From a virus (Duplodnaviria; Caudoviricetes), in IMG/VR virus record IMGVR_UViG_3300025016_000004: DNA of 64,000 nt. One strand, given 5' to 3'. Position numbers and translations under genes: made by a program. This document shows positions 5,019 through 62,809 of this stretch, piece by piece. A model generated the notes under the pieces. That model made no database searches and was not told the origin of the DNA. It worked only from the letters and a program-made list of their open reading frames with translations. How positions within the stretch are numbered: position 1 is the first letter of the stretch; each line of letters opens with the position of its first letter.

Positions 5019-5200
5019 ATAAATTGAAAAGAAAAGTTGGAGATAAAGTTACTTTGAATGATAAATTTGGTAATGATGAAGGAAAAGAAGCAATAATTAA
5101 CTCAATAGAAACTTCTAAAAATGGTAGAGAGTGGTATCGACTAACTTATAAAGGTAAATTAGACCCATGGAATTGGTGTGATTCAGATTTTAAAAATTAA
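5015..5200 (+). CDS. Small hypothetical protein inside the cca insertion
   Basis: ATG overlaps the endonuclease stop (ATGA). Confidence 0.55.
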   Translation: MNKLKRKVGDKVTLNDKFGNDEGKEAIINSIETSKNGREWYRLTYKGKLDPWNWCDSDFKN

Positions 5201-5201
5201 T

Positions 5202-6086
5202 ATGAAAACTTGGAAAGATATAGCTAAAAAAACAGTACCTAATGAATTTAATACATTCATGAAGGGTAAAGGCAGAAGACCTGATTCTGTAATATTTTCT
5301 GATATTGAAACTGATGTTAAAAGACGTGATTTAACAATCAATGCATTATTCTACGATATTTCAACAAAAGAGATAGTAGATTTAGTTGGTGGCATAAAAG
5401 ACATTAATAATGGTGTTGTAAGGACCGTAGGAGACGCTGGAGAGCGTTTTGGGGAAGATAGACTAAGAATCCTTAGAGCAATTAGATTTGCGGGTAGAAC
5501 GGGTTCTAAATTAGACCCAGCAATTGATAAGTCATTAAGACAAGATAATTCATTAGAAGGTATTTCTGGTGAACGTATTATGGATGAGTTTGTTAAAGGT
5601 ATCAAATCAGCGAAATCAACTAAATATTTTTTATCATTAATTGATAAATATAATTTATTTGATTGGATTTTTAAAGGTATTTCACCAATTAACAAACAAT
5701 TCATTGAGTCTAATGACCCAATATTAGTTATAGCGGTATTACTAAAGGATGTATCATATGATACTATCAGTAAACAATTGAATGCGCTTAAGTATTCATC
5801 CAATCAAATAAAACCAATAGTATTTATGGTAGCTTATTACCAATATTTCTCTAAAGATACTTTTTATACGTTGAAAAAAATGTATAATACTTTTGAGGCA
5901 AATGGTAATACGTTTTTATCATTCATAGAGCTTATGGGTGGTAACACTGAAATTGCACGTAAGTTTATCAATTATCAGCTATCAATTACTGGTGATATGG
6001 TAAAACAAAAATACGGAATGAAAGATGGTCCTGAATTAGGGGCTAAGATAAAAGAGTTAGAAACTCAACAGTTTTTTAAAATATAA
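5202..6086 (+). CDS. cca: CCA-adding enzyme, C-terminal fragment of a split gene
   Basis: GRRPD..DVKRRDLTINALFYD, EDRLRILRAIRF, SGERI motifs. Confidence 0.88.
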   Translation: MKTWKDIAKKTVPNEFNTFMKGKGRRPDSVIFSDIETDVKRRDLTINALFYDISTKEIVDLVGGIKDINNGVVRTVGDAGERFGEDRLRILRAIRFAGRTGSKLDPAIDKSLRQDNSLEGISGERIMDEFVKGIKSAKSTKYFLSLIDKYNLFDWIFKGISPINKQFIESNDPILVIAVLLKDVSYDTISKQLNALKYSSNQIKPIVFMVAYYQYFSKDTFYTLKKMYNTFEANGNTFLSFIELMGGNTEIARKFINYQLSITGDMVKQKYGMKDGPELGAKIKELETQQFFKI

Positions 6087-8644: not shown

Positions 8645-8702
8645 AAAAAAACTTGTTTTATATTGAAACATTATGTATATTTGCACTATATATTAATAAC
8701 AA
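8645..8702 (+). promoter_or_regulatory. Bacteroidota sigma-type promoter P1, one of four near-identical copies
   Basis: TTG 8653-55 and TATATTTG 8676-83. Confidence 0.8.
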
Positions 8703-8731
8703 GACGGGTGAATACCCTAAAAAATTAGAAA

Positions 8732-8839
8732 ATGCAAGCAATAAGTATTATACATATTATGAGTTCGATAAATTGGAGACGTAATTCTTCAGTAGTGTCA
8801 GGTATGTCTATACTTAATAGTGGAAATTGGTTTGGTTAA
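8732..8839 (+). CDS. Leader peptide 1: MQAISIIHIMSSINWRRNSSVVSGMSILNSGNWFG
   Basis: Codons 4-20 are all I/S/H/M/N/W/R; contains antiterminator TGTCAGG at 8796-8802. Confidence 0.85.
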   Translation: MQAISIIHIMSSINWRRNSSVVSGMSILNSGNWFG

Positions 8840-8867
8840 CAAATTAATAAAACAAAAAGATAAGATG

Positions 8868-8901
8868 AAAATCCTGACAGAAATGTCAGGATTTTTTTTT
8901 T
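8868..8901 (+). terminator. Attenuator terminator 1
   Basis: AAAATCCTGACA-GAAA-TGTCAGGATTTT plus U-tract. Confidence 0.9.
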
Positions 8902-8906
8902 AATAT

Positions 8907-9002
8907 GGTATCTGTAGCAGAATTGGTAAGTAGTACCCTTATCGGGGAACATGCACTAGATTGTGGCTCTAGAGGATGCGGATTCGAGTTCCGTCTGATA
9001 CC
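8907..9002 (+). tRNA. trnH: tRNA-His(GTG) with a ~20-nt insertion in the D-loop
   Basis: G-1:C73; stem CTAGA/TCTAG; loop TT-GTG-GC. Confidence 0.8.
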
Positions 9003-9218: not shown

Positions 9219-9234
9219 GTTCATTGACATATTG
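9219..9234 (+). promoter_or_regulatory. boxA-like motif
   Basis: GTTCATTGACATATTG; similar copies at 57863 and 59712. Confidence 0.45.
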
Positions 9235-22931: not shown

Positions 22932-24291
22932 GTGAACTACCCACCCACGCCAGAGGCGATGGGTTGGGCTTCTGATTTCACAGACTTGTGCTTCTTTATA
23001 GAAGTCTTATTTGAGTCTCCATCAGTGTTATCGAGCATCCCACCCGATATTATTTTTAAACCTTCTTTGAGAATATTTCTACTTGCATTTACATCTCTGT
23101 CGTGTATTACACCGCACGAGTTACAAGTCCATTCTCTATCAGAAAGTTTTAAATTTTGATTTATCCAACCACAGTCTCCACAAGTCTTCGAGCTAGGATA
23201 GAAACGATTAACTTTTACAAGTTCTTTTCCATACCAATCACACTTATATTGAAGTAATGTAACAAAATTACCCCAACTTGCATCGGCAATATGTTTTGAT
23301 AATTTGTGGTTTTTAATCATACCTTTTACATTTAAGTCCTCAACTGATATTAAATCATATTGATTAACCAGTTTATGTGAAACCTTATGTAAAGTGTCTA
23401 ATCTACAACTTGCAATTTTCTCGTGAATTTTAGCAACTTTGAGTTTTTGTTTTTCAAACCCATTACTACCTTTTTGTTTACGAGAAAGATGTTGTTGTGC
23501 TTTTTTTAATTGTTTTGCATATTTTTTTGTATATCTATTATTTTTGAATTTAGCATTATCAGAAGTAATTACAAAATCCTTTAAACCTAAATCTATTCCA
23601 ACTTGTTTATTTGTTTTAGGTAATTCTTTATTCTGTTGTTCTGTAAATATTGAAACATAATATTTACCTGTTGGTGTTTTGGTAATTATCATTTTACCAA
23701 TCTTACCTTTGACTTCTCTGTGAAGTTTAACTTTAATACCTTCTTTAAATTTTGGTATATTAATTTTATCTCCTTCTATACTACCAAATTGAGGTATGGT
23801 AAAAGTATTTTTATGTTTACGAGATTTAAACTTTGGGAATTGTGCATTACCTCTAAAAAAGTTTAAAAAAGCTGTATCTAAAGAGCGTAGAGCGAATTGT
23901 AAAGTTTGACTATTAACTTCTTTCAACCACATAGTCTTTTCTTCTTTTTTAAGTTTTGTCAAAGTGGCAGCTTGTTTGTAATAATTGTCAGACTTTTTAT
24001 CCGCTTGGTATTGTTCTTTGCGTTCATTTAGAAAATGGTTATACACCCAACGAGAGTGACCAAAGTGTTGATTTAATAGCACTTCTTGCTCATTTGTTGG
24101 AAAAAGACGAAACTTATATGTCTTATTAATCATTTTCATACCTATTATACATCAAAATTTATGCCAAAATATAGTTTTATGTAAATTTGTCATACTTAGC
24201 CGTTCAATATATTTTAAGCCAAGGTTAATCATACCTTTGTCGCTTACATCCCATCCACGCTTTGCGATGAATGGGTTTTACGCTCCTTTTT
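22932..24291 (-). mobile_element. tnpB-only IS200/IS605 (IS1341-like) element
   Basis: Left end after TTTAT, right end GTAGTTCAC, subterminal hairpins. Confidence 0.88.
22937..24139 (-). CDS. tnpB: TnpB RNA-guided nuclease, apparently intact
   Basis: HTH, GIDLG, VEDL, zinc finger, DRDVNA. Confidence 0.95.
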   Translation of the reverse strand: MKMINKTYKFRLFPTNEQEVLLNQHFGHSRWVYNHFLNERKEQYQADKKSDNYYKQAATLTKLKKEEKTMWLKEVNSQTLQFALRSLDTAFLNFFRGNAQFPKFKSRKHKNTFTIPQFGSIEGDKINIPKFKEGIKVKLHREVKGKIGKMIITKTPTGKYYVSIFTEQQNKELPKTNKQVGIDLGLKDFVITSDNAKFKNNRYTKKYAKQLKKAQQHLSRKQKGSNGFEKQKLKVAKIHEKIASCRLDTLHKVSHKLVNQYDLISVEDLNVKGMIKNHKLSKHIADASWGNFVTLLQYKCDWYGKELVKVNRFYPSSKTCGDCGWINQNLKLSDREWTCNSCGVIHDRDVNASRNILKEGLKIISGGMLDNTDGDSNKTSIKKHKSVKSEAQPIASGVGG

Positions 24292-26451: not shown

Positions 26452-27414
26452 ATGAAAATAGTTAAGGTAAAACATATTAAAGAGATAGAATGTGACTCTA
26501 AGAGGTATGATATTCAAACCAAAGAAACCAATAATTTCTTTGCTAATGGGATATTGGTACATAACTCATTGATTCAAGTATATTGGGATTGGGTAGCTGA
26601 AAAATGGTGTGCTGGCACATCTGGTATGGCCGAAGGTGAAGGTGAAGTAAATGATAAACCAAATACTAAGTTTTCTGAATTATTTTGGGATACAATTACA
26701 TCACCAAAATATGGTTTTAATTGGGATAGAATGGTTAGAGGTAGAACATATATGTTTGAATTAATGACACCGTATAATATTGTTGTTTGCCCACATGGAG
26801 AATCAAAAGTATCATTATTAGGTGTTAGAGATTTAGATACGTTAAATGAGTATGGTTTTAATGATTTATATACAATATCTACTGATATTGGGTTACCATT
26901 AGTTAAATCTTTTAACATTAATGCATCAAATGCTGGTCATTTAATGGCGACATTTGAAGGTATGTCATTCTCTGAAGAAGGTTATGTTGTAGTTGATGCT
27001 AATTTCAATAGAATCAAGTTAAAAAACCCAGCTTATGTTGCAATGCATTATACTAAAAGTAAATTAGGTAATCACCATATATTAGAGGTGTTAAAAACTA
27101 ATGAAGTTGATGAATGGATTGCAACGTTCCCAGAAAGGTCTGAAGAAATAATTCAACTTAAAGAAGGGTTAGTAAAATTGACTGATGATTTGGAAAATGC
27201 TTGGGTAGAATTAATACCATATAAACCTAAAAACATAACTAAACAAGAACAAAAGAGGTTTGCGATGAAAGTATTTGAAGTATCTAATAAACACTTCAAA
27301 AATACTCGTCACACTGGATTGTTTTTTGGGTTAAAAGATGGTAAAATTAACACGATTAGAGAATATATAATCAATATGAATAATAAAGATTTATATGAAA
27401 TATTAACAAAATAA
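26452..27414 (+). CDS. Split intein C-part plus RNA ligase (Rnl1-like) C-extein
   Basis: YDIQT..NNFFANGILVHN | SLIQVY; EEGYVV; RIKLKNP. Confidence 0.88.
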   Translation: MKIVKVKHIKEIECDSKRYDIQTKETNNFFANGILVHNSLIQVYWDWVAEKWCAGTSGMAEGEGEVNDKPNTKFSELFWDTITSPKYGFNWDRMVRGRTYMFELMTPYNIVVCPHGESKVSLLGVRDLDTLNEYGFNDLYTISTDIGLPLVKSFNINASNAGHLMATFEGMSFSEEGYVVVDANFNRIKLKNPAYVAMHYTKSKLGNHHILEVLKTNEVDEWIATFPERSEEIIQLKEGLVKLTDDLENAWVELIPYKPKNITKQEQKRFAMKVFEVSNKHFKNTRHTGLFFGLKDGKINTIREYIINMNNKDLYEILTK

Positions 27415-29030: not shown

Positions 29031-30449
29031 ATGACAATTAAAGCAATATTTGATGAAATAAGTAACACAGCTGGTGATAATGCCAAAATGGATGTATTAC
29101 GCAAGTATAAAGACAACGACTTACTTAAAGAAGTTTTGTATCGAATAAAATCTAAAAGAGTGAAGTTTTTTATTAAACAAATACCTGAATATATTTCATT
29201 AAATAGTTCAATCCCAGCTTCATTAGAGTGGGGTTTAAATAATCTTGATGAAATTTCTGACAGAAAAATTAGTGGACAAGCGGCTATAAATCATTTAAAA
29301 TTCATATTAGAAAGTGTATCACCAGATGATGCTTATATCATTGAGAGAATTATTGATAAAGACCCTAAGAATGGTTTAGGTAGAACCTACATTAATAAAG
29401 TCTATGGTGATTTGATTGAGAAAACGCCATATCAAGGTGCTAAATCATATGATGAAAAATTAGCTAAAGATATTTTTAAGAAATATGGTTACGCTTATAG
29501 TGACGTTAAAATGGATGGTAGGTATGCTAACGCAATCATTCAAGGTGGTGAAGTTGAGTTAGAGTCTAGACAAGGTGAAACAACTCATATTCCAAGTGAC
29601 TCATTATTATTTGAGGAATTATCAAAATTCCCTGATGGTGTATTAAATGGTGAGCTTACAATGGAGAATTTAGACCGATACACAAGTAACGGTATTATAG
29701 CTTCAATTGTCGATATTGAGGGTCGTGGTAAAATGGGTGATAGAAGTGATGAAGAAACCGCTAAAAAATTAGTGGCATTCGAGAAAAAGCATGGTAGTTT
29801 TAAAGAAGCTGTTGATAAAATCAGATATACTGTATGGGATTCAATTACATTAGATGATTATTTTAATAAGAAATCTGATATTGAATATAGACATAGATTG
29901 GATTTCTTATTTAAAAAGACTCCAGTTTTAGAATGTGATAGAGTATCAGTAGTTGAACGTAAGAAAGTATATTCTTATGATGAAGCAATGAGTCACTTCC
30001 AAGAGATTTTAAATAGAGGTGAAGAAGGTACCATCCTTAAAGCACCAACAGCTGGATGGTTTGATGGTAAGAAAAATCACCAAATAAAAATGAAATTAGA
30101 AATGAATATTGACCTTAGAGTTATAGGGTTTGAATATGGTGAAAAAAGAAGTAAAAATGAAAATGTTTATTCAACAATAAACCTTGAATCATCATGTGGT
30201 AAATTAAGAACCAATGCTTCTGGTATGACTGAGAAGATGATGAAAGATATTACTGAAAGAGGTGATGAACTTATGGGGACAATAGTAGAAATACGTTGTT
30301 GTGGTTTATCTCAAAACTCTAATGGTGATTGGTCAACTTTACATCCTTCAGTTGTTGAATTGAGAGATGATAAAGATACTTGTGATTCATTAGAGTCATG
30401 TCAAGAGATTGAAGCAATGGCTAAAGGATTAGGTAAAGAAGTGGGATAA
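29031..30449 (+). CDS. ATP-dependent DNA ligase
   Basis: KMDG, NGEL, EEGTILK, IKMK motifs and an OB domain. Confidence 0.92.
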   Translation: MTIKAIFDEISNTAGDNAKMDVLRKYKDNDLLKEVLYRIKSKRVKFFIKQIPEYISLNSSIPASLEWGLNNLDEISDRKISGQAAINHLKFILESVSPDDAYIIERIIDKDPKNGLGRTYINKVYGDLIEKTPYQGAKSYDEKLAKDIFKKYGYAYSDVKMDGRYANAIIQGGEVELESRQGETTHIPSDSLLFEELSKFPDGVLNGELTMENLDRYTSNGIIASIVDIEGRGKMGDRSDEETAKKLVAFEKKHGSFKEAVDKIRYTVWDSITLDDYFNKKSDIEYRHRLDFLFKKTPVLECDRVSVVERKKVYSYDEAMSHFQEILNRGEEGTILKAPTAGWFDGKKNHQIKMKLEMNIDLRVIGFEYGEKRSKNENVYSTINLESSCGKLRTNASGMTEKMMKDITERGDELMGTIVEIRCCGLSQNSNGDWSTLHPSVVELRDDKDTCDSLESCQEIEAMAKGLGKEVG

Positions 30450-31234: not shown

Positions 31235-32062
31235 ATGGTAATTACAACATGGTGTGAATTAGTAAATGGTAGGTGGGGTTACTCAAAACACCTATCTAAG
31301 ATAAAATTTCCGATTAATATGGTTAAATGTGATGATTGTAATCACATATATAATGAAAGGTTTGATAAAACAAATAAAAGGTTTGAAAAAAATGAAAAAG
31401 ATTTGTGTAAAAATTGTGTTAAAGAGAAAGAAGCTAAAAGACTTTCAGAGGTAGGTAAAAAAGCTTTAAGTAAAATATCAAAAAAAGATAGAACCAAAAA
31501 TGCTAAATTGGGTGGTGAAGCATCATCTTTGAATCATAACAATTCTGGTAGATTTTCAACGGAAAGGTGGGAGTCTATGAGTAAAAAAGAGCAAAATAAA
31601 CAAGTAACAAGAGCAAATAAGGCATTACACGATAAATTAAATTCAGATGAAGAATTTAGATTAAAACATTATTTAAAGATTTTTAAAAATTCTAAAATTG
31701 GTTTTACATCTAAAGGTCATAATGAATTACATGATTTTTTAAAAGAATATGGATTTAAACAGCACCATGTAATAGATAAACTTGAGGTTGATGAATGTAA
31801 TGTTAATAGAAAAATCGTTGTGGAATATAATGGGGATTTATATCATTGTAATCCTAGAAAATATGATGGTGATTACTACAACACAGCAATTAAAATGATT
31901 TGCTCTGATAAATGGGAAAAGGATAGAAAAAGAACTTGGTTATTAAAAAGAAAGGGATATAAAGTTTTTGTTGTTTGGGAAGATGATTGGTATAAAAATA
32001 GGGAAAAAATTAAAAATAGATTAAATAAATTTATTAATAATGAAATTAAAAAAGATAAATAA
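31235..32062 (+). CDS. Free-standing Vsr-like/DUF559-type endonuclease between the intein halves
   Basis: VDECN..VEYNGDLYHCNP...D..R..L...GY.V..VWE. Confidence 0.78.
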   Translation: MVITTWCELVNGRWGYSKHLSKIKFPINMVKCDDCNHIYNERFDKTNKRFEKNEKDLCKNCVKEKEAKRLSEVGKKALSKISKKDRTKNAKLGGEASSLNHNNSGRFSTERWESMSKKEQNKQVTRANKALHDKLNSDEEFRLKHYLKIFKNSKIGFTSKGHNELHDFLKEYGFKQHHVIDKLEVDECNVNRKIVVEYNGDLYHCNPRKYDGDYYNTAIKMICSDKWEKDRKRTWLLKRKGYKVFVVWEDDWYKNREKIKNRLNKFINNEIKKDK

Positions 32063-32999
32063 AATAAAAGAAAGAAGGTCATTTGACCTTACGATACAAG
32101 ACACAAATTGTTTTTTTGTAAATGACATTTTGGTGCATAATTCAAATGCGGGTATTGGACATACTGAAAATGATGGTATTTGGGCACAATCTAGAAGTAA
32201 TATTATAACTCCTGAAAATGATAATATGGGGTTTGCAAGGTATGTTGAAGATAATAAACAAGCATTCCTTGAATTGGTTGAACATGTTAGATATGTAAAC
32301 CATAAGATTAACCCAAACGATACTGTTATTGTATTCGGTGAATGGGCTGGTAAAGGCATCCAAAAAGGAGTTGCAATATCTCAAATAGAAAAGTCATTTT
32401 TCATATTTGACGTAAAAGTTGTACCTGAAGATAGTACTAAACCATATCATTTAGCTTCTCACTATTTAAGAGATATTGACCATAGAATTTATAATGTTGA
32501 AGATTTCTTATCTTATGAAATCGAAATTGATTTTAATAGACCTGATTTGGCTCAAAATGAATTAAGTGAGATTACCATTGCAGTTGAAGAATTATGCCCC
32601 GTAGGTAAAGCTTTTGGTATTGAAGGAATTGGTGAGGGTGTGGTTTGGTGTGCAACGGTTGATGGTCATGATTACCGTTTCAAAGTGAAGGGTGAACGAC
32701 ATAGCGCATCTAAAGTTAAGACTTTAGCTAAAGTTGATACTGAGAAAATAAATTCTATCCATGAATTTGTTGGTTACGCTGTAACTCAAAATAGATTTGA
32801 ACAAGGTATGGGCATTATTTTCCCTAACGGAGATATTGACATTAAAAAAATGGGTGATATCATTAGATGGGTTGTGAATGATATTATGGCCGAAGAAAAG
32901 GATGTTTTAGAAGATAATAACCTCCAATCAAAAGATGTCAACAAATACATTTCAACAAAGGTTCGAGAACTCTTTTTAGAGGAATATAATAAACTTTGA
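32040..32999 (+). CDS. Split intein C-part plus RNA ligase (Rnl2-like) C-extein
   Basis: FDLTI..FFVNDILVHN | SNAG; FGEWAG; GEGVVW; FKVK. Confidence 0.88.
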   Translation: MKLKKINKIKERRSFDLTIQDTNCFFVNDILVHNSNAGIGHTENDGIWAQSRSNIITPENDNMGFARYVEDNKQAFLELVEHVRYVNHKINPNDTVIVFGEWAGKGIQKGVAISQIEKSFFIFDVKVVPEDSTKPYHLASHYLRDIDHRIYNVEDFLSYEIEIDFNRPDLAQNELSEITIAVEELCPVGKAFGIEGIGEGVVWCATVDGHDYRFKVKGERHSASKVKTLAKVDTEKINSIHEFVGYAVTQNRFEQGMGIIFPNGDIDIKKMGDIIRWVVNDIMAEEKDVLEDNNLQSKDVNKYISTKVRELFLEEYNKL

Positions 33000-36824: not shown

Positions 36825-37145
36825 AATATATTTGTTTTTTATATATATAAATATGCCGAAAATTTGGAAAATCAGACAAAATGTAGTATAATTGCGTTAA
36901 GAAACAATTAAATTACAACAAATTAAAAAAAAAGTGGGGATTTCATTTGGTAATCCCAGATTTTATTTTTATGGTTGTACCAACACCTCATGATAAAATA
37001 TTAGAAAATAGTAGAAAAGATTGTAGTTGTAGTAATGTTAAGACCGAAAGGTTTATGTATATAGATGCAATTAAATATTAAAAATTATTTAGTTATTTAA
37101 AATAATTTACATACCTTTGAAGAGTTAATATAAAATTTTTTGAAA

Positions 37146-38429
37146 ATGATTACTAAAGAAAATGGTTTAAGGTATGCAAAATTAGTCCATGTATCAGTTG
37201 ATAATGGGTTAACATCTCAAAGTAATAAGGTGTATATAATGGAAGAACAACCTGATGGTAGAATCAAATGTGATTATGGTCGAGTTGGTAAAGATTTAGT
37301 GACTGTCTACAAGCGGTCACACGAATGGAATAAAGTTCTTCAAAGTAAAACAAACCCTAGAAAGGGTTATCAAGATGTTACAGACCTTATTGCTGAAACC
37401 ACAACAACCTCTTCAAATAGTACATCATCAAAAACAGCTGATATTAAAGATAATCAAGTAAAACAATTATTTGATGATTTAATGGCTTATGCAAATAAAT
37501 CAATCCAAAGAAACTATAAGGTTACACAAGATGCTGTAACTCAAGCACAAATTGATGCCGCTCAAGAAGTTTTAACAAAAGCTTCAGGATTGGCTAAAGT
37601 TGGTGTTAATGTTAAAGAAATCAACGACTTATTAATAAGACTGTACACCATCATTCCAAGAAAAATGAAAGATGTTCGTGATTATTTGATTGATGCTGCG
37701 GATGATAAAGATGATTTAGATAAGATAAAAAACTTCTTAGCTAACGAACAAGATACATTAGATACAATGGCTGGTCAGGTAAAACTTATTAGTCAACAAA
37801 AGGGTTCAACCATTGATGATGATTTAGATGGTGATGGGGAAATTACCTTATTAGAACAAATGGGGTTAGAGGTGTCTGTTGAAACTGACCCTAAACAATT
37901 AGAATTGATAGATAGATTGGTTGGACCAACTAAAGATAGACTTAAAAAGGTTTATAAATGTGTTAATAAGAAAACACAAGCTGTATTCGATAAACATTAC
38001 GGTAATGCTAGATTTAAAGACAGAAAATTATTCTGGCATGGGTCTAGAAATGAAAATATTTTTAATATAATCCAATCAGGATTATTAATTAGACCTTCAG
38101 GTGCAGTTCATACGGGGTCAATGTTTGGTGATGGAATATATTATGCTAATAAGGCTCAAAAATCATTAGGTTATACTTCAGTAAGAGGTTCTTATTGGGT
38201 AAATGGTAGTTCTAATAAGGGTTATTTATTGTTATATGATGTTTATCATGGAAAACAAAAAGATATTTATAAACATGATTCTAGTTGTTACTCATTATCT
38301 CAAAAAGTAATGGATGATGAAGGTTATGATTCAGTTTATGCACATGGTGGAGCGGATTTAAGAAATGATGAATTCATTATTTATAACCCAAAACAGTGCA
38401 CTATTAAATATATAATTGAGATAGTCTAA
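37146..38429 (+). CDS. PARP-like enzyme: WGR, regulatory and catalytic domains
   Basis: YGRVG; FWHGSR..N; GSMFGDGIYYA..AQKS; NDEFIIY (H-Y-E triad). Confidence 0.9.
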   Translation: MITKENGLRYAKLVHVSVDNGLTSQSNKVYIMEEQPDGRIKCDYGRVGKDLVTVYKRSHEWNKVLQSKTNPRKGYQDVTDLIAETTTTSSNSTSSKTADIKDNQVKQLFDDLMAYANKSIQRNYKVTQDAVTQAQIDAAQEVLTKASGLAKVGVNVKEINDLLIRLYTIIPRKMKDVRDYLIDAADDKDDLDKIKNFLANEQDTLDTMAGQVKLISQQKGSTIDDDLDGDGEITLLEQMGLEVSVETDPKQLELIDRLVGPTKDRLKKVYKCVNKKTQAVFDKHYGNARFKDRKLFWHGSRNENIFNIIQSGLLIRPSGAVHTGSMFGDGIYYANKAQKSLGYTSVRGSYWVNGSSNKGYLLLYDVYHGKQKDIYKHDSSCYSLSQKVMDDEGYDSVYAHGGADLRNDEFIIYNPKQCTIKYIIEIV

Positions 38430-43500: not shown

Positions 43501-43557
43501 AAAAAAACTTGTTTTTTATTTAAACAATTACTATATTTGCACATATATATTAACAAG
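43501..43557 (+). promoter_or_regulatory. Promoter P2
   Basis: TTG 43509-11; TATATTTG 43532-39. Confidence 0.8.
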
Positions 43558-43626
43558 AGATAGGATAATACATCTGGACAAACCCAAATGGGAAAGGATT
43601 GAATCTGAACAGTCTCTTAAATAAAA

Positions 43627-43710
43627 ATGAAAATGAAAACTTTAGTAACTTTATTATCTTTATGTCTGTTGGTCGTGTGTACTGACACATCGAGTTATGT
43701 AATTACTTAA
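43627..43710 (+). CDS. Leader peptide 2: MKMKTLVTLLSLCLLVVCTDTSSYVIT
   Basis: 11 of codons 6-18 are L/V/C; antiterminator ACATCGAGTT at 43687-96. Confidence 0.85.
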   Translation: MKMKTLVTLLSLCLLVVCTDTSSYVIT

Positions 43711-43742
43711 AGGATTTATTTATATATTTTTTAAATTGTTAT

Positions 43743-43775
43743 AAAAGCTCGATGTTAACGCATCGAGCTTTTTTA
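43743..43775 (+). terminator. Attenuator terminator 2
   Basis: AAAAGCTCGATG-TTAACG-CATCGAGCTTTTTT. Confidence 0.9.
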
Positions 43776-46580: not shown

Positions 46581-46638
46581 CAAAAAAATTTGTTTTATAT
46601 TGAAACATTTACTATATTTGCACTATATATTAATAACG
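46581..46638 (+). promoter_or_regulatory. Promoter P3
   Basis: TTTG 46589-92; TATATTTG 46613-20. Confidence 0.8.
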
Positions 46639-46668
46639 GTATTAATAAAGTACCACAAAATAAAAGTA

Positions 46669-46764
46669 ATGAGAAACTTAATTAACATATTTGAAAACGA
46701 ATTTTTCGCAGCCGAGGCAGATTTTAGCTTGGGTAGGATGAGAATTGTCAAAAATGAAAGTTAA
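46669..46764 (+). CDS. Leader peptide 3: MRNLINIFENEFFAAEADFSLGRMRIVKNES
   Basis: 11 of codons 8-19 are F/E/A/D; antiterminator GGATGAGA at 46736-43. Confidence 0.85.
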   Translation: MRNLINIFENEFFAAEADFSLGRMRIVKNES

Positions 46765-46796
46765 GTTATTTAAAAAATAATAAAAACAATAAGACA

Positions 46797-46829
46797 AAAT
46801 CTCATCCAAATCGGATGAGATTTTTTTTT
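46797..46829 (+). terminator. Attenuator terminator 3
   Basis: AAAATCTCATCC-AAATC-GGATGAGATTTTTTTTT. Confidence 0.9.
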
Positions 46830-48726: not shown

Positions 48727-48801
48727 TGGTTTATCGTCTAAATGGCAAAAGATACTGTGCGTGTCAGTACAGAGATGGAGGTTCGAGCCCTCCGAAAACC
48801 G
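48727..48801 (+). pseudogene. Asp-type tRNA with an 8-nt anticodon loop
   Basis: CTGTG-CGTGTCAG-TACAG; G73. Confidence 0.6.
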
Positions 48802-48808
48802 CAATATG

Positions 48809-48844
48809 GGGGGCACATGTACCAAGGCAAGGCGTTGGACATTT
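48809..48844 (+). pseudogene. 5' half of a split tRNA-Ala
   Basis: GGGGGCA pairs with TGTCTCC at 49622-28; GGACA pairs with TGTCC. Confidence 0.75.
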
Positions 48845-48891
48845 ACCTAAACTTATGTGGTCGTTTCGATTATTTTGTGATATTTATTAAT

Positions 48892-49533
48892 ATGAAAGAA
48901 TGTCCAAAGTGTGGTAATAACCACCATAAAAAGGGTAAGTTTTGTTCTAGGTCTTGTGCTAATAGTAGAACTTGGTCCAAAGAAGATAAAAGTAAAAAAT
49001 CTGAAATCGCTAAAAAATCTGAAAAAGTTTTATTGGCCAATCGTGACCCTGAAAGAAGAAAGAATCTCTCAATATCAGCAAAAGCCCAAGCAAAAGTTGG
49101 TAACATTAATTGGAGTAAATTACATACTAAAGATGTTATTAACAAGGCCTTAAAAACTAAAAAGCTTAAAAGGGAACTATGGTTAGATTCATTTGATAGG
49201 AGTGATAAAATTGAATACCGTAAAGCTTGTAAATTTAAATTTAGTCTTAATTCATACCCAGATAAATTTGATTTTTGGTTGATTGAAGAGTATGGCTGGT
49301 ATAAAGCTAAAAATATGGGTGACAATCCAAATGGGATAAGTAGAGACCATATGTACTCAATTAGTGAAGGATTTAAAAATGGTGTTGACCCGTATTATAT
49401 TAGTCACCCAGCCAATTGTAAATTAATGAGGCATGGTGAAAATAATAAAAAAGATGGTAAAAGTAGTATTAATCTAGAAGATTTAATAAAAAAAGTTAAT
49501 AAATGGGATAATAAATATGGGCCGTTAGCATAA
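48892..49533 (+). CDS. HNH homing endonuclease
   Basis: CPKC..FCSRSCA; SRDHMYS...HPANC...N; true start at 48892. Confidence 0.82.
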   Translation: MKECPKCGNNHHKKGKFCSRSCANSRTWSKEDKSKKSEIAKKSEKVLLANRDPERRKNLSISAKAQAKVGNINWSKLHTKDVINKALKTKKLKRELWLDSFDRSDKIEYRKACKFKFSLNSYPDKFDFWLIEEYGWYKAKNMGDNPNGISRDHMYSISEGFKNGVDPYYISHPANCKLMRHGENNKKDGKSSINLEDLIKKVNKWDNKYGPLA

Positions 49534-49591
49534 ATGGCAAATGCTCTTCATTTGCAATGAGGAAGATTGGGTTCGAATCCCAGCGTGTCCA
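49519..49591 (+). tRNA. trnA: tRNA-Ala(TGC), overlapping the HNH stop; acceptor stem imperfect
   Basis: CTTCA-TTTGCAA-TGAGG; G3:U70. Confidence 0.75.
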
Positions 49592-49765: not shown

Positions 49766-50884
49766 CTAATGGCTCACGTTAGCGTACAAAGGGTTGTCCC
49801 TAACCCCGAAATTCTTTATGTTATATGCAGCGTTTACATCTCTATCAATTGAATTACCGCACTTATCACAATCATAAGTTCTATCTAAAAGTTTTAAATC
49901 TTTCTTGTGGTTTCCACAGTTAGAACATACTTTACTGCTTGGTTCAAACCTTCCAATTACAACAAGATTTTTACCTTGCCATTCAGTCTTATATTCAAGC
50001 ATTGTTCTTAATTGTCGCCAACCCATATCAGATATTGCTTTAGCTAAATTATGGTTCTTAACCATATTACTAACAGACAAATCTTCCAATACAATTGTAT
50101 TATAAGATTTAACTAATTCAGTAGATATTTTGTGCAAGTAATCAGTCCTTTGGTTACGAATTTTTTCTTGCAGTAATGCTACTTTTAATTTTTGTTTTTC
50201 TCTATTTATTGAGTCTTTCTGTTTTCTTGCAAGGCTTCTTTGTTCAACTCTTAATCTTCTTTGTTGTGATTTAAAGAAGTTTTTATTTTCATATACTACA
50301 CCATCAGAAGTAATAGCTAAATCTTTAATTCCAAAATCAATACCAACAGATGTTTCAGTTTTAATTGATTTTTTCTTTGGTTTTTCGGTTTGAGTATCAA
50401 CCAATATTGAAACAAAATATTTACCAGTTACTGTTTTAGTTAATGTAACTCTTTTAGGTAAACCTTTAAATTCTCTGTGGTAATCAATAGCAACTTCTTT
50501 TAATTTAGGTAGCTTTAGTATTCCCTCTTTAAACGATATTTCAAATCCTTGTGGAAACGTAATTGACTGTTTGGAATACTTATTTTTAAATTTAGGAAAT
50601 TGACCTTTACCCTTAAAAAAGTTTTGATATGCTGTATCTAAATTGATTATGCTATGTTGTAATACTTGACTTGGACATTCTTTAATGTAGTCAAATTCTT
50701 TTCTCAATTCTGGAAGTTGTTTTATTAAATCATATTTAGATATTGATTTTTTATTTGAGGCATACGCAACAGTCTTGGTTTCCAACCCCAAATTATAGAC
50801 AAGTCTATTTACACCAAAATACCTTTGTAGTTGGTCTTTTTGGTCATCTGTTGGAAATATTCTGTATTTGTATCCTTTAAGCAT
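49766..50884 (-). CDS. tnpB: TnpB, apparently intact
   Basis: GIDFG, LEDL, zinc finger, DRDVNAA. Confidence 0.95.
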   Translation of the reverse strand: MLKGYKYRIFPTDDQKDQLQRYFGVNRLVYNLGLETKTVAYASNKKSISKYDLIKQLPELRKEFDYIKECPSQVLQHSIINLDTAYQNFFKGKGQFPKFKNKYSKQSITFPQGFEISFKEGILKLPKLKEVAIDYHREFKGLPKRVTLTKTVTGKYFVSILVDTQTEKPKKKSIKTETSVGIDFGIKDLAITSDGVVYENKNFFKSQQRRLRVEQRSLARKQKDSINREKQKLKVALLQEKIRNQRTDYLHKISTELVKSYNTIVLEDLSVSNMVKNHNLAKAISDMGWRQLRTMLEYKTEWQGKNLVVIGRFEPSSKVCSNCGNHKKDLKLLDRTYDCDKCGNSIDRDVNAAYNIKNFGVRDNPLYANVSH

Positions 50885-51030: not shown

Positions 51031-51435
51031 ATGCAATCAAATTACATTTCTACAAACCATTCAAAACATTATCTTAAAGCACATATTATATTGGTTACAA
51101 AATATCGTAAACCATTATTAGTTAATCAACTTAAAGAAGATATGTATGTAATATTCAACAACATCATAGATAATTCAGATTTTAATGTAGAGGTATTTCA
51201 AAGTGATATAGACCACATACATTTCTTAATTAGGTACATACCTCGTTTGTCTATATCTCAAATTGTACGTAGGTTAAAACAACAATCTACATATCATATT
51301 TGGCAATTACATTCAACATTGCTTCGTAGGGAGTATTGGTACAAAAGTATGTTTTGGTCAGCAGGGTATTTCGTTTGCTCTATTGGTGAAGCAAGTCCAG
51401 ATACTATTCGTCAATATATTTTAAGTCAAGGTTAA
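51031..51435 (+). CDS. tnpA: IS200-family HUH (Y1) transposase
   Basis: DHIHFL; FWSAGYFVCSIG; IRQYI. Confidence 0.95.
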   Translation: MQSNYISTNHSKHYLKAHIILVTKYRKPLLVNQLKEDMYVIFNNIIDNSDFNVEVFQSDIDHIHFLIRYIPRLSISQIVRRLKQQSTYHIWQLHSTLLRREYWYKSMFWSAGYFVCSIGEASPDTIRQYILSQG

Positions 51436-51535
51436 TTACTACATTTGTCGCTTACATTTTGTGAATTTAAACAAATATTTGGTTTTGTCAAAATAATATT
51501 GTATTTTTGCAAAAGTTTAGACTATTTAATAATAT

Positions 51536-56456: not shown

Positions 56457-56669
56457 AAAGGAGCGTAAAACCCATTCATCGCTTTAGCGTGAATGGGTTG
56501 TAAGCAACAAAAAGATTTGACTTTTAAAAATAAAGTCGTATATTTGTATTAACTCTGGTTTTGGGATGCAATCGGAGTATAAACAAAAACAAGTGGAGGC
56601 GTTGACATTGGTCGAGTCAATGAAACTTGAAGCCCAACCCATCGGCTCTGGCGTGGGTGGGTAGTTCAC
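56457..56669 (+). mobile_element. 213-bp non-autonomous IS200/IS605 element retaining both ends and an omega-RNA-like region
   Basis: TTTAT flank; left-end hairpin; right end GTAGTTCAC. Confidence 0.85.
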
Positions 56670-58844: not shown

Positions 58845-58934
58845 GGCGCAGTAGCTCAATTGATAGAGCGTGTTGAAACATCCGATAAACGGTTGAAGTA
58901 GGCAAGGTTGGTGGTTTGAGTCCATCTTGTACCA
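58845..58934 (+). ncRNA. tRNA-like RNA with an expanded anticodon loop
   Basis: Canonical acceptor, D and T arms; CCG-ATAAA-CGG insert. Confidence 0.55.
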
Positions 58935-59015: not shown

Positions 59016-59168
59016 CCATAAAATCATGGAAAGCAAATGAAAAGAATTTTCATGTCTGAATGTGGGACGCATTTCGGACAATAAACAAAAACAAGTGGAG
59101 GCGTTGTCGTTGGGCAAGTCAATGAAACTTGAAGCCCATCCATCACGAAGTGTGGATGGGTAGTTCAC
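59016..59168 (+). mobile_element. Orphan IS200/IS605 right end with an omega-RNA-like region
   Basis: Near-identical to 56570-56669; ends in GTAGTTCAC. Confidence 0.75.
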
Positions 59169-59178: not shown

Positions 59179-59403
59179 GTGATGATTAGAACTAAATATA
59201 AATGTGAGAATGAATTATCATACATTCCAACTGAGTTAGCTTTAATGGATGCTTTTGATAAAAATGATATTGTCGTTCAAGTAACTTATAAGGCGAAAAC
59301 TAAATATAATGTTGAATTATTATATACTGAAGTATATCGTATCAGTGAAAATTTAGAAATTGATGAATTATATAAAAAAAATATAAGACTGATAATCAAG
59401 TAG
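59179..59403 (+). CDS. Hypothetical protein
   Basis: ORF track. Confidence 0.45.
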   Translation: MMIRTKYKCENELSYIPTELALMDAFDKNDIVVQVTYKAKTKYNVELLYTEVYRISENLEIDELYKKNIRLIIK

Positions 59404-59429
59404 TTAAAAAATAATTTAAAAATAATTGC

Positions 59430-59487
59430 AAAAAAACTTGTTTTATATTAAAACATTTACTATATTTGCACTATATATTAATAACAA
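59430..59487 (+). promoter_or_regulatory. Promoter P4
   Basis: TTG 59438-40; TATATTTG 59461-68. Confidence 0.8.
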
Positions 59488-59511
59488 GGGTAAATCCCAA
59501 AATAAGAAATA

Positions 59512-59610
59512 ATGAGAAATTATACAACATATACGAAACAGTATCAACCGAAGGGCGGGAAGTCCCAAGGTCAACTGAGTATACGTTGTAGTGACATAAC
59601 AGAATTCTAA
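59512..59610 (+). CDS. Leader peptide 4: MRNYTTYTKQYQPKGGKSQGQLSIRCSDITEF
   Basis: Codons 4-17 are all Y/T/K/Q/P/G; antiterminator TCAACTGAG at 59571-79. Confidence 0.85.
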   Translation: MRNYTTYTKQYQPKGGKSQGQLSIRCSDITEF

Positions 59611-59640
59611 TGTAGAATATAGTTATATAAACAATATATA

Positions 59641-59678
59641 AAAACCCAGTTGATAAAACAATTTCAACTGGGTTTTTT
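59641..59678 (+). terminator. Attenuator terminator 4
   Basis: AAAACCCAGTTGA-loop-TCAACTGGGTTTTTT. Confidence 0.9.
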
Positions 59679-59711
59679 GCGTTTAATAGTTTCCAAATCT
59701 ATAAAATTGGA

Positions 59712-59727
59712 GTTCTTTGAAATATTG
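59712..59727 (+). promoter_or_regulatory. boxA-like motif
   Basis: GTTCTTTGAAATATTG. Confidence 0.5.
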
Positions 59728-59736
59728 TATTTTTAT

Positions 59737-59823
59737 CTAGGGGTTAGAGCAGATGGCTAGACTCGCTTGCCTTGGGTGCAAGAGTTAGAAATAACATCGT
59801 GGGTTCGAATCCCACCCCTTAGA
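59737..59823 (+). tRNA. trnP: tRNA-Pro(TGG) with a long variable arm
   Basis: CTTGC-CTTGGGT-GCAAG. Confidence 0.85.
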
Positions 59824-59892
59824 CATGAAAATTTTTTGGATTTTGGTTCAAAATCTTTACTTATGTATAAATTAAAAGAATATATTAAAAAA

Positions 59893-59975
59893 CGGGAAAT
59901 GACCAAGGTAGAATGAAAAAAGGCTACGGGGCCTTGGAAGCTTCAGTATGGTCGGTTCGATTCCGACTTTCCCGA
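59893..59975 (+). tRNA. trnP: tRNA-Pro(TGG) with an enlarged D-region
   Basis: GGGGC-CTTGGAA-GCTTC. Confidence 0.75.
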
Positions 59976-60151
59976 CGACCAGACTGTTACTAATTCATAG
60001 AAGGAGAAACGTATCCTAGCATAAAATTAGATTTATTGGGGCATCGTCTAGATTCCAGAAGGATTTAGATTAGGTCGTAAAATGAAATAAGAGAATAGTG
60101 AACCTAAGAAATACGTGGTAGCATGGTTAACAATGTCTTGTCTCTTATAAT

Positions 60152-60224
60152 GACCTCGAAGCTCAAGTGGACGGGCATCTCCCTTTTAAGGAGAGGGTTA
60201 CGGGTTCGAAGCCCGTGGGGGTCA
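60152..60224 (+). tRNA. trnK: tRNA-Lys(TTT)
   Basis: TCTCC-CTTTTAA-GGAGA. Confidence 0.88.
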
Positions 60225-60314
60225 CAAAGTTCAGTTGATAGTCTGAACTGAACCAAAATTATCATTTGCCTATATCGCATACCAACATATAAAGCACTTA
60301 ACACTGGATGATAT

Positions 60315-60393
60315 GCACCATAGACTGAATAGGAGAAGGTACTGGATTTGTAACCCAGAAGGCTGGTCGGTTCGATTCCGACATGGTGCCCCA
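60315..60393 (+). tRNA. trnT: tRNA-Thr(TGT) with encoded CCA
   Basis: CTGGA-TTTGTAA-CCCAG. Confidence 0.82.
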
Positions 60394-60537
60394 CAAAAAG
60401 AGGATATTATTTGGTGAGTAGACTATCGAGCCAGTTATAGCGAGTATAGTTAAAGTGACAAGTAAGATGACAGGGCATATTGGGTATGTTTATAACAAAC
60501 CTGAACTTAGCGGTTTTGGTGTCGTCCTCTTTAAAAT

Positions 60538-60618
60538 TGGGAAGTAGGTAAGCGGTCAAAACGGCCTGACTGTAAATCAGGTGCTTAGGCTTCGGGGGTT
60601 CGAATCCCTCCTTCCCAA
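60538..60618 (+). tRNA. trnY: tRNA-Tyr(GTA)
   Basis: CCTGA-CTGTAAA-TCAGG; type II. Confidence 0.9.
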
Positions 60619-60767
60619 CTATACATGTAGAAAGCAATTATTGATGTCTAGCTTCAGCTTCGTGGAGAGGTCAGGCTACAATCTGGTGATAAGATTAATT
60701 ACCTTAAGTCAGATACATTATGAATTGTGACATATCGCATATTACGATATGGAATATTAGTAAATAT

Positions 60768-60841
60768 TGCCCCATGGTGTAATTGGTTAACACGTCTGGT
60801 TTTGAGCCAGAAGAGTCTAGGTTCGAGCCCTAGTGGAGTAA
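60768..60841 (+). tRNA. trnQ: tRNA-Gln(TTG)
   Basis: TCTGG-TTTTGAG-CCAGA; U1-A72. Confidence 0.88.
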
Positions 60842-60954
60842 CTTTGGAACTTTTGTACTTTTTGATATATTATATATAAAAGATTAGGTCGCAAAATGAA
60901 ATAAAGATAAAGAGGGAGATGTTTTAACCTAACATCTTTAAAAAATAGGTTAAT

Positions 60955-61041
60955 GGCCCCGTAGCTCAGTTGGTTTGGAGAAATCCTTAGAGCTTTCCGC
61001 TTTTAACGGAAATGTCACAGGTTCGAATCCTGTCGGGGTCA
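60955..61041 (+). tRNA. trnK: tRNA-Lys(TTT) with a GGA-GAAA-TCC hairpin inserted in the D-loop
   Basis: TTCCG-CTTTTAA-CGGAA. Confidence 0.85.
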
Positions 61042-61150
61042 CAAAAATTACCAGATGTTACCGTTAAGGTGGTATAAAAAGTGTAATTAATTGGTTTACA
61101 ATGGATTGATTTTATAGAAAATCACAAAACGTTACCGTTAATTACCGAAT

Positions 61151-61223
61151 GCACCCATAGTTTAAGTGGTTAGAATTTTGGATTGGTATTTCAAGGGTCT
61201 CGTATCGTGTACGAGTGGGTGCT
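61151..61223 (+). tRNA. trnT: tRNA-Thr(GGT) with a degenerate T-loop
   Basis: TTGGA-TTGGTAT-TTCAA; T-loop ATCGTGT. Confidence 0.65.
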
Positions 61224-61346
61224 CCGAGCCATTTGGATTGTGAAACTTGTGGTACAAGATATTGTGACCAAAGTTGTTAAATTATAAGGTATGATTTGGT
61301 TATTACATTAATATTTCGTATCTTTGTAGTAAATTAAAAATAAGAT

Positions 61347-62222
61347 ATGAGAGAATTAGTGGTAACACCATCGATAACAGATAGAAGTTCACCTTCATTA
61401 CAAATGTACTTCAATGACATTCAATCAATTAAGATTTTAACACCTGAAGAAGAGTATGAAATTGCGGTAAAAGCGTTTGATGGTGATGAAAAATCTAAAG
61501 AATTATTAGTAAAACATAACCTAAGATTTGTAATAAGTGTTGCAAAACAATATCAAATATATGGGATTAAATTTGAAGATTTAATCAATGAGGGTAATAT
61601 AGGGTTGCTTAAAGCGTCAGAAAAGTTTGACCCATCAAGAGGTTTTAAATTTATATCATATGCTGTATGGTGGATTAGACAAACAATAATAGCACACATA
61701 CAAGCAAACAGTAAAATTGTTAGACCACCACTTGGTAAATATATTAAATCATTTAAAATGAAAAAAGAATATACCTTGTTGGAGCAAAAGTTAGAAAGAA
61801 CTCCAGCTTACAATGAATTGGTAGACCATTTAGGTAATGAGTTTAGTGATTCTGAAATAGAGTTTTTTATTGATAATTTAAGTAATAAGGTACAATCATT
61901 AGACGCACCTTTAGGAGAAGATGATGATTCTATAACGTTATTAGATTTGTTAAAAGATTCAAATGATTTCGATTCAAATGACTTAGTTAAGTTAGGTGAT
62001 TCTGACATTAGAACTGAAGTATTACTTAGTAGGTTAAATGATGAAGAGAAAACCATATTAATATTATTATATGGCTTAGATGGTAGAGAACCAGTAAGTA
62101 TCAAAGAAGTATCAAATATGTTAGAACTTAGCAAAGCAAGAATTGCTTTGATTAGAGATAAGTCTTTACGTAAATTAAAATTCCAATTGCTTCATAAGGG
62201 TAATTGGTTGAAAGAAATATGA
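61347..62222 (+). CDS. RNA polymerase sigma-70 factor (RpoD-like, no region 1.1)
   Basis: HNLRFVISVAKQY; DLINEGNIGL.KA.EKFDP.RGFKFISYAVWWIRQ; SLDAP; region 4. Confidence 0.93.
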   Translation: MRELVVTPSITDRSSPSLQMYFNDIQSIKILTPEEEYEIAVKAFDGDEKSKELLVKHNLRFVISVAKQYQIYGIKFEDLINEGNIGLLKASEKFDPSRGFKFISYAVWWIRQTIIAHIQANSKIVRPPLGKYIKSFKMKKEYTLLEQKLERTPAYNELVDHLGNEFSDSEIEFFIDNLSNKVQSLDAPLGEDDDSITLLDLLKDSNDFDSNDLVKLGDSDIRTEVLLSRLNDEEKTILILLYGLDGREPVSIKEVSNMLELSKARIALIRDKSLRKLKFQLLHKGNWLKEI

Positions 62223-62325
62223 GGTAAAACAACCCCAGCAACTGTATAAGTAATATATTGTTGAGAGCTGACTCAACACTCCTTAGTGAACTGCTAGGTG
62301 TGAAAGGTAGTTGAGACACCGACTT

Positions 62326-62399
62326 GCGGGATTGGTGTCCAATGGCTAACATGTGACCCTTCCAAGGTTGAGCTGTCGGTTCGAATCCGACATTCCGCA
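62326..62399 (+). tRNA. trnG: tRNA-Gly(TCC)
   Basis: TGACC-CTTCCAA-GGTTG. Confidence 0.9.
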
Positions 62400-62413
62400 C
62401 AAAAATACAACAT

Positions 62414-62809
62414 TTAAATTGAATCTTTAATTCGTTTAAGTAAATCAATCTTATTCTCAAATAAGGTTTCTTTTAAGGCTTGTCGTTCATCTTCAAGTCT
62501 ATCTCTTACGATACTTTTAACCTTTTCCGTAAATGATAAACCTAATTCCACAGTAGTACTAAATTTATGGTTAGCCAATATTATTTTATCATGGCCAATA
62601 ACCATACAGTATTCATTTACCCTATCTATTAGAAAGTATTCATCTGATTTAGGTGAAATCATTCTTTCAACATCAGTTCTATCTAATAACTTATTAACAA
62701 TTTCAATTGTTTCTTTAGCTTCTTCATTATCTTCCAATTTACTCTTAAATGTCCAATTCATAATTTTTATTTTTGAGTTAATCTTACAAAGATACAACAA
62801 ATAACCCAA
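62414..62809 (-). CDS. Hypothetical protein
   Basis: ORF track; probable ATG at 62761. Confidence 0.6.
   Translation of the reverse strand: MGYLLYLCKINSKIKIMNWTFKSKLEDNEEAKETIEIVNKLLDRTDVERMISPKSDEYFLIDRVNEYCMVIGHDKIILANHKFSTTVELGLSFTEKVKSIVRDRLEDERQALKETLFENKIDLLKRIKDSI

Follow-up and report, generated by a model that had tools for sequence, protein, structure and literature searches.

The closest described counterparts of the locus analyzed in this study are the leader-peptide attenuators of enterobacteria. The thr (Thr/Ile), ilvGMEDA (Leu/Val/Ile), trpL, hisL, pheL, and leuL leaders likewise consist of a short open reading frame (ORF) with a run of regulatory codons, and they share with the phage unit described below a 1:2 hairpin and a 2:3 antiterminator that excludes the 3:4 terminator, the multivalent leaders sensing several amino acids. 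What the his and trp attenuators sense is the amount of charged tRNA, also when this is lowered by reduced tRNA gene dosage (hisR mutants). In Escherichia coli pheST, which is preceded by the pheM leader, attenuation acts on part of the decoding machinery, as it would here, and not on a biosynthetic pathway, and the T-box riboswitches of Gram-positive bacteria likewise act by antitermination upon shortage of charged tRNA. Leader-peptide attenuation has also been indicated in the likely host family of the phage examined here (PMC9723704).

How phage tRNA genes are controlled is largely unknown. These genes have been described as counter-measures to tRNA-targeting host defences (PMC10264068; PMC11464382), and it is debated whether the near-complete tRNA sets of large phages serve codon compensation or escape from such defences.

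We analyzed a stretch of 64,000 nucleotides (hereafter the window) of AT-rich phage DNA, derived from a contig of ~315 kb, whose sequence is present in metagenomes of groundwater and aquifers; small shares of its sequence words in three metatranscriptome runs do not count as evidence of expression. Among cultured phages, Tenacibaculum jumbo phages are the nearest relatives, with an A1-like protein 49-52% identical. ARAGORN and Rfam identify 33-40 tRNA genes in the window, all on the plus strand and in four main clusters. A preliminary description had interpreted the region ahead of the last cluster as an attenuator sensing Tyr, Thr, Lys, Gln, Pro, and Gly, and our computational analysis supports this claim by anatomy and comparative evidence. 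We consider it likely, with a probability of about 0.8, that this unit (U4) is a ribosome-mediated, leader-peptide attenuator gating a phage tRNA operon, with read-through when the cognate tRNAs are scarce. This reading is inferred from sequence; function in vivo remains untested, and there is no RNA or experimental evidence. The sequence anatomy, statistics, conservation, and covariation of the unit are shown below.

The whole U4 control unit (59437-59678) comprises a promoter, a 32-codon ORF, and a strong intrinsic terminator. An A/T-rich block with a Bacteroidota sigma-A-type promoter, recognized by a 35-nt pattern and a four-unit alignment, occupies positions 59404-59471 on the plus strand; its -33 TTG lies at 59438-59440 and its -7 box, TATATTTG, at 59461-59468, and transcription is inferred to start at ~59473. 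In Flavobacterium, the -7 box TAnnTTTG is located at -12 to -5 (PMC9723704), and the promoters of the window combine a -33 TTG with a TAnnTTTG -7 box, as Bacteroidota sigma-A promoters do (PMC9723704). The 35-nt pattern occurs exactly four times in the window, against none expected, and every occurrence precedes a leader, a terminator, and tRNA genes; when these four units are aligned, ~95 nt are near-identical.

The leader ORF of U4 (59512-59610, plus strand; 32 codons, MRNYTTYTKQYQPKGGKSQGQLSIRCSDITEF, then stop), recognized by its conserved start, frame, and length, begins ~39 nt past the inferred transcription start. An A-rich context with A at -3, as this leader has, suits translation in Bacteroidota. 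That the leader is translated is inferred, without RNA, ribosome-profiling, or reporter data. Codons 4-17 (59521-59562, plus strand; YTTYTKQYQPKGGK) form the putative regulatory run, TAT ACA ACA TAT ACG AAA CAG TAT CAA CCG AAG GGC GGG AAG, in which all 14 residues fall within the set {Y,T,K,Q,P,G}, that is, the amino acids of the downstream tRNAs. Among 337 control small ORFs taken from the six frames of the window, none reached 12/12 or 14/14 for the U4 set (maxima 10 and 11), and the run is therefore beyond chance; the preliminary claim of a leader at this position with 14 of 14 residues in the operon set thus held upon reading of the ORF and comparison with these controls. The residues belonging to the set are concentrated ahead of region 2 (15/16, vs. 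3/13 behind it). The anticodons encoded downstream can read 13 of the 14 codons of the run; for GGC, the window has no GCC tRNA, which is present in relatives.

The fold of the whole U4 leader is stable (z = -5.3) and consists of three elements, namely hairpin A, a small hairpin B, and the terminator. Hairpin A (1:2; 59523-59590, plus strand; minimum free energy [MFE] folds) has the regulatory codons in its 5' arm and includes region 2 in its 3' arm, and a fold of this type was seen by MFE in 20/20 intact units folded, including those of the window and all orthologues. Region 2 (TCAACTGAGTAT; 59571-59582, plus strand), identified by pairing and covariation, is a copy of the terminator 3' arm and is able to pair with the terminator 5' arm, forming an antiterminator (2:3) that excludes the terminator. 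The pairing of a leader segment with the terminator arm, claimed previously, was confirmed: TCAACTGAG (59571-59579) and CCCAGTTGA (59645-59653) pair at 8/9 positions. Extended to 10-12 nt, the 2:3 duplex has a dG of -11.2 kcal/mol, which was reached by 22/1000 dinucleotide shuffles. Hairpin B (59596-59626, plus strand) holds the stop codon (59608-59610) in its apical loop and keeps the same shape with a different sequence in 9/9 U4-type units. The intrinsic terminator (59642-59678, plus strand), supported by folding, pairing, and alignment consensus, has the arms AAACCCAGTTGA (59642-59653) and TCAACTGGGTTT (59664-59675), which form a 12-bp stem closed by a 10-nt loop and followed by a T-tract extending to 59678 (dG -13.1). 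This layout is the classic one of 1:2, 2:3, and 3:4 structures. MFE folding of a transcript ending at region 3 yields 2:3 pairing even without a stalled ribosome, and imposing a stalled-ribosome constraint does not discriminate, with 2:3 forming on thermodynamic grounds as long as region 4 is missing. This implies that the switch is a kinetic one.

The putatively regulated operon (59737-62400, plus strand) was delineated using ARAGORN and Rfam and contains, in order, tRNA-Pro(UGG) at 59737, a tRNA-like element, tRNA-Lys(UUU) at 60152, tRNA-Thr(UGU) at 60315, tRNA-Tyr(GUA) at 60538, tRNA-Gln(UUG) at 60768, a weak Glu(UUC)-like match at 60963, tRNA-Thr(GGU) at 61151, a sigma-70-family gene, and tRNA-Gly(UCC) at 62326, all on the plus strand. 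The preliminary list of two Pro, two Lys, two Thr, and single Tyr, Gln, and Gly tRNAs held only in part: both Thr, the Tyr, Gln, and Gly, one Pro, and one Lys tRNA were found, the supposed second Pro tRNA is an aberrant Pro-like, tRNA-like RNA with a 6-nt anticodon loop (59893-59976), and neither ARAGORN nor Rfam detects a second tRNA-Lys in the operon. The sigma-70-family gene (61347-62222; regions 1.2, 2, 3, and 4) lies between tRNA-Thr and tRNA-Gly, a place within the tRNA operon that is kept in several relatives, and it would therefore be co-regulated by the attenuator.

Between the terminator and tRNA-Pro lies a further hairpin (59691-59712) followed by the conserved motif TTCTTTGAAATATTG (59713-59727; whole element 59691-59727, plus strand), the former a co-varying stem and the latter invariant in the alignment. 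The motif is located ~10 nt ahead of tRNA-Pro and recurs ahead of the first tRNAs in relatives; more generally, a co-varying hairpin and then the conserved motif TTCTTTGAMRTMKTG are found ~10 nt 5' of the first tRNA in some operons (window 59691-59727 and 9220-9234; L226 9758, L228 5375, L236 3018). This element is possibly a processing or protein-binding site. We rejected it as a second promoter between the terminator and tRNA-Pro: TTCTTTGAAATATTG has no properly spaced TAnnTTTG box, and on a sigma-70 reading of the region the start would fall inside the tRNA.

Three sister units in the window (U1-U3) share the U4 promoter, and their leaders match their own tRNA sets (HWSIMNR, CVL, and FEDA, respectively). 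Behind each copy of the promoter come, in order, an ORF of 27-35 codons, a strong intrinsic terminator, and a cluster of tRNAs. U1 (8652-8896, plus strand), with its leader at 8732-8839 (starting MQAISIIHIMSSINWRRNSS), region 2 TGTCAGG, and its terminator at 8868-8895, precedes His, Trp, Ser, Ile, Leu, Met, Asn, and Arg tRNAs. U2 (43508-43769, plus strand; leader 43627-43710, containing TLVTLLSLCLLVVC) precedes Cys/Val/Leu tRNAs, and U3 (46589-46824, plus strand; leader 46669-46764, containing IFENEFFAAEADF) precedes Asp/Phe/Glu(/Ala) tRNAs. The terminator end is separated from the first tRNA by only 7 nt in U2 and 14 nt in U3, so that read-through is the only way in which the tRNAs there can be transcribed. 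For its own tRNA set, each of the four leaders scores at least as high as the best of the 337 control small ORFs, and the 4x4 matrix of leaders by tRNA sets is strongly diagonal, with U4 scoring 14/14 for its own set vs. 2-7 for the others. Hairpin A, the stop region, and the terminator constitute a fold common to the four units, in all of which 7-8 nt at codons 20-23 exactly repeat the terminator 3' arm (shuffle P of 0.055, <0.001, 0.002, and 0.022 for the four units); across all intact units this copy is located at codons 20-26.

The U3 cluster includes tRNA-Ala(UGC, G3:U70), matching the Ala codons of the U3 leader. The acceptor stem of this tRNA (49519-49591) has three mismatches at its base, and ARAGORN offers as an alternative a tRNA interrupted by an insert of 687 nt, which overlaps an ORF of 263 aa (48742-49533); such an insert could be an intron or a homing element, although this is no more than a possibility. 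Other irregular tRNAs include a His(GUG)-like one with a 23-nt D-loop insert (8908-9002) and tRNA-Pro at 59737-59824 with an extra arm of ~14 nt; for many amino acids, the window holds one canonical and one odd tRNA copy. A 68-nt non-coding repeat (56572-56639 and 59074-59141, 90% identical), for which no Rfam family matches, lies within larger similar blocks 5' of U4, and an odd 90-nt tRNA-like match is located at 58845-58934. Two TnpB/IS605 OrfB-like genes with a Cas12f-like TNB domain are found on the minus strand (22937-24139 and 49766-50884); one of the two falls within the U3 tRNA region. Further genes of the window specify a CCA-adding enzyme, an ATP-dependent DNA ligase, an RNA ligase, and a PARP-like protein, and two ORFs have weak N-terminal intein-splicing matches, suggestive of genes split by inteins (loci of these enzymes and intein-like ORFs together: 5178-6086, 29031-30449, 32040-32999, 37140-38429, and 26452-27414).

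Orthologous units were identified in at least 10 related uncultured jumbo phages. Searches with sigma-factor homologues, together with pattern scans of IMG/VR and of metagenomes, yielded 7 distinct U4-type leaders, and three complete phage genomes of 353-362 kb (G002-G004) added two more intact U4 versions and one truncated version; the contigs of two close sigma-factor relatives (L003 and L004) end too early upstream to include the leader. Conservation of the U4 unit extends to phages with a sigma factor of only 40-53% identity. Over 9 distinct orthologues, the leader ORF has the same start, frame, and length (31-34 codons), and indels within the ORF are of 3 nt, whereas those past the stop are of any length. 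The peptide core TYTKQYQPKGGK[SP]QGQL is conserved and the C-terminal third is not; the core is conserved at the nucleotide level, and constraint on the peptide cannot be fully separated there from constraint on the RNA. Substitutions in the run mostly remain within the set (K to T, S to P, Q to T or K, S to G), with the exception of K to N in one relative (L224). Downstream of the terminator, all U4 relatives whose sequence reaches that far have Pro, Gln, Tyr, Thr, and Gly tRNAs, and all but one (L020) also have Lys.

The RNA structures are conserved by compensatory change. In the RNAalifold consensus of the U4 orthologues, both hairpin A and the terminator reappear, with 8 pairs showing compensatory changes. 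In the 2:3 helix, 90% of cells are paired over the 9 orthologues, and 4/10 pairs are compensatory with both sides changed; none of 500 shuffles reached the observed values, and slid registers gave only 16-47% pairing. The three complete genomes share the four-way tRNA partition of the window (HWSNIMR, CVL, FEDA, and PQYTGK), and in their orthologous leaders region 2, the terminator 5' arm, and the 3' arm change together, as exemplified by the region 2/arm pairs of U1-type units: TGTCAGG/CCTGACA, AGTCAAGG/CCTTGACT, GGTCAAG/CTTGAC, and AGTCGGG/CTCGACT. Among 15 terminators, its own is the best or near-best partner of each leader (mean dG -11.9 for own terminators vs. -6.7 for those of other unit types), and in-set leader residues are confined to codons 5' of region 2.

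In one of these genomes (G004, 353 kb), the U1 and U4 leaders have no start codon. The promoter there is fused to mid-leader (L226 9310-9448 and L229 1737-1877); the ATG and region 1, i.e., the 5' half of the leader, are missing, and region 2 and the terminator are retained. It is conceivable that these are natural constitutive read-through variants. The U1-type units of G002-G004 (L232, L226, and L236) also contain a conserved ORF of ~60 aa (MEE..LVRKLGSEK..) between the terminator and the first tRNA, so the attenuator there would control a small protein as well.

In more distant phages (G007, G008, G010, and G011) the tRNAs are grouped differently, and the leaders differ correspondingly. A leader starting MVNITINIQQQQQQQT carries seven consecutive glutamines (QQQQQQQ; Q7) and is followed by four tRNA-Gln, whereas one with VIKKKKKPW (K5) is followed by five tRNA-Lys. 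The leader containing TNTSHNHFNKSTFSN precedes Phe, Ser, Asn, His, and Thr tRNAs; that containing WPVMPTTVGAICIIMAGDY precedes Gly, Met, Val, Trp, Tyr, Pro, Ile, Asp, Ala, Thr, and Arg tRNAs; and a merged L/C/A/D/V/F leader (ILLDSLCLAADVDF) stands before a merged Cys/Val/Leu and Phe/Asp/Ala operon. Over 14 units, the true pairings of leaders with operons give a summed z of 59.4, vs. -0.9 ± 7.7 for shuffled pairings, and 0/20000 shuffles reach it; one G007 leader is an exception, matching its own operon only weakly (8/24).

Among cultured phages, Caulobacter phage phiCbK has an analogous unit (L250 4307-4503; NC_019405.1 ~51306-51502), with a sigma-70-like promoter and a nearly leaderless 32-codon ORF starting MSKTYRQFVRQIQVVRNIR. 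This ORF holds a copy of the terminator 3' arm and is followed by an annotated terminator and then by Phe, Val, Ile, Ile, Val, Gln, and Gln tRNAs. No convincing leader was found in phiCbK ahead of the Glu/Asp tRNAs, and that ahead of the Pro/Lys/Leu/Ser tRNAs shows a moderate match only. The U4 unit itself had no match in cultured phages by megablast or blastn; the nearest of these, Tenacibaculum phages pT24 and PTm1, have 4 and 0 tRNAs, respectively, and are uninformative. In IMG/VR, the window promoter pattern gave 0 matches, and the U1 terminator pattern 3 chance matches, none with tRNAs; for a relaxed promoter pattern, the loci examined were unrelated and none adjoined tRNAs.

We propose the following mechanism, in which both the role of stalling in driving read-through and the physiological trigger are inferred. 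Host RNA polymerase would start at the strong sigma-A-type promoter and transcribe the 32-codon leader. Upon fast reading of codons 4-17, the ribosome would pass over region 2 to the stop codon, or hairpin A would re-form; the 3:4 terminator would then form, and transcription would end ahead of tRNA-Pro. When charged tRNA runs low for at least one of the six amino acids (Tyr, Thr, Lys, Gln, Pro, and Gly), the ribosome would stall on the 5' arm of hairpin A, leaving region 2 free to pair with the terminator 5' arm, and the polymerase would continue into the operon and transcribe its Pro/Lys/Thr/Tyr/Gln/Gly tRNA genes together with the sigma-factor gene embedded among them. Without translation, termination would be expected, as with fast decoding. 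The choice between the structures would be kinetic. The anatomy of U4 fixes the direction of this predicted switch, in that stalling gives read-through, and since the regulated tRNAs are the molecules sensed, the product would feed back on its own synthesis. Together with the three sister units, the whole phage tRNA set would be split into four demand-sensing channels.

The natural trigger is a matter of inference, and possible candidates are depletion of host tRNAs by defence nucleases, host shut-off, or codon demand. The defence scenario is plausible, although not proven, because genes for a CCA-adding enzyme and an RNA ligase are present in the window and because phage tRNAs have been linked in the literature to tRNA-targeting defences. 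The preliminary description had put forward tRNA-Lys cleavage by the PrrC anticodon nuclease as a test case, which is a reasonable proposal rather than evidence; nothing shows that an anticodon nuclease is the natural trigger. Several observations speak against the attenuator reading, namely the lack of a cognate GCC tRNA for GGC, the start-less leaders of G004, the weak match in G007, and the failure of MFE folding to discriminate between the two states.

Other explanations were weighed against the attenuator reading. The unit could be a real attenuator that acts as a general gauge of translation or amino-acid starvation and couples tRNA and sigma-factor transcription to ribosome activity or infection timing. 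In favour of such a gauge, stalling reports charged tRNA, so amino-acid starvation would also trigger the switch, six amino acids per leader give a broad signal, and the sigma-factor gene would be co-regulated. However, codon matching would be superfluous in a general gauge, whereas in every lineage examined the leaders follow the tRNA content of their operons, the single-amino-acid Q7 and K5 leaders included, and we regard this explanation as unlikely. We give still less credit to the view that the promoter-to-terminator unit produces a stable small RNA or micropeptide, with the tRNAs arising from constitutive leak-through or other promoters and the alternative pairings being incidental. It is true that a strong promoter and an efficient terminator would by default give an RNA of ~200 nt, that the U4 peptide core is highly conserved, and that a conserved hairpin and motif lie 3' of the terminator. 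This view nevertheless leaves unexplained the composition match over at least 14 non-identical units, the threefold covariation among region 2 and the two terminator arms, and the short distance (7-14 nt) between terminator and first tRNA in U2 and U3; moreover, the C-terminal third of the peptide is not conserved.

Direct, ribosome-free sensing of tRNA by the leader RNA, as in a T-box, can be all but dismissed. The regulated genes do concern tRNA and the leader is highly structured (z = -5.3), but there is no Rfam match to the T-box (RF00230) or to any other non-tRNA family in 59400-62500 at E ≤ 1, nor in the whole window at the gathering score, the start codon, frame, and stop are conserved with indels in threes, and six tRNAs would require six specifiers. 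Ribosome-mediated attenuation remains the preferred reading. A bolder version of it, which we consider slightly less likely than not, is a four-channel tRNA homeostat, in which the tRNAs for all 20 amino acids would be distributed over four operons, each switched on only when exactly those tRNAs run short. To this joint reading, and held with no greater assurance, belong the on-demand replacement of host tRNAs depleted by anticodon nucleases or by the phage's own host shut-off, and the rebuilding of the same logic with other groupings across jumbo phages of several bacterial phyla, including phiCbK.

If the attenuator reading is true, a leader that reads the tRNAs it controls would represent direct product feedback on tRNA supply and would add a new class of target to one of the longest-known mechanisms of regulation. 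The debate on the tRNA sets of large phages would become testable, with the leaders revealing which tRNA shortages the phage expects, and the units would be natural sensors of codon-specific decoding speed, compact enough to be used as reporters. The analogous unit of phiCbK offers a cultured, genetically tractable system.

Compared with known systems, U4 meets the sequence-level criteria of an attenuator, i.e., promoter, short ORF, codon run, 1:2 and 2:3 structures, and 3:4 terminator, but not that of a classical target (genes of amino-acid biosynthesis, transport, or aminoacyl-tRNA synthesis), its targets being tRNAs and a sigma factor. The Rfam amino-acid leader models (His, Thr, Trp, Leu, and Phe) do not match the phage unit, and in the literature searched, which did not cover subscription-only papers, we found neither attenuation of tRNA operons nor demand-sensing control of phage tRNA transcription. 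The studies of phage tRNAs that replace lost host tRNAs (PMC10264068; PMC11464382) have the tRNAs themselves as their topic, whereas the present unit concerns the control of their transcription. The T-box binds uncharged tRNA directly, without translation, through a specifier loop and the T-box motif, and regulates synthetase and amino-acid genes rather than tRNA genes. In pheST, a synthetase gene is controlled and one amino acid is sensed, in contrast to tRNA genes and several amino acids in the phage unit. Unlike the enterobacterial leaders, which act on biosynthetic enzymes, the phage unit would act on tRNA genes and a sigma factor, so that the sensed molecule is the product itself, and the phage units would sense up to 6-11 amino acids per leader behind a Bacteroidota-type promoter. 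The unit thus likely works like a member of the leader-peptide attenuator family, with tRNA genes as a new class of target.
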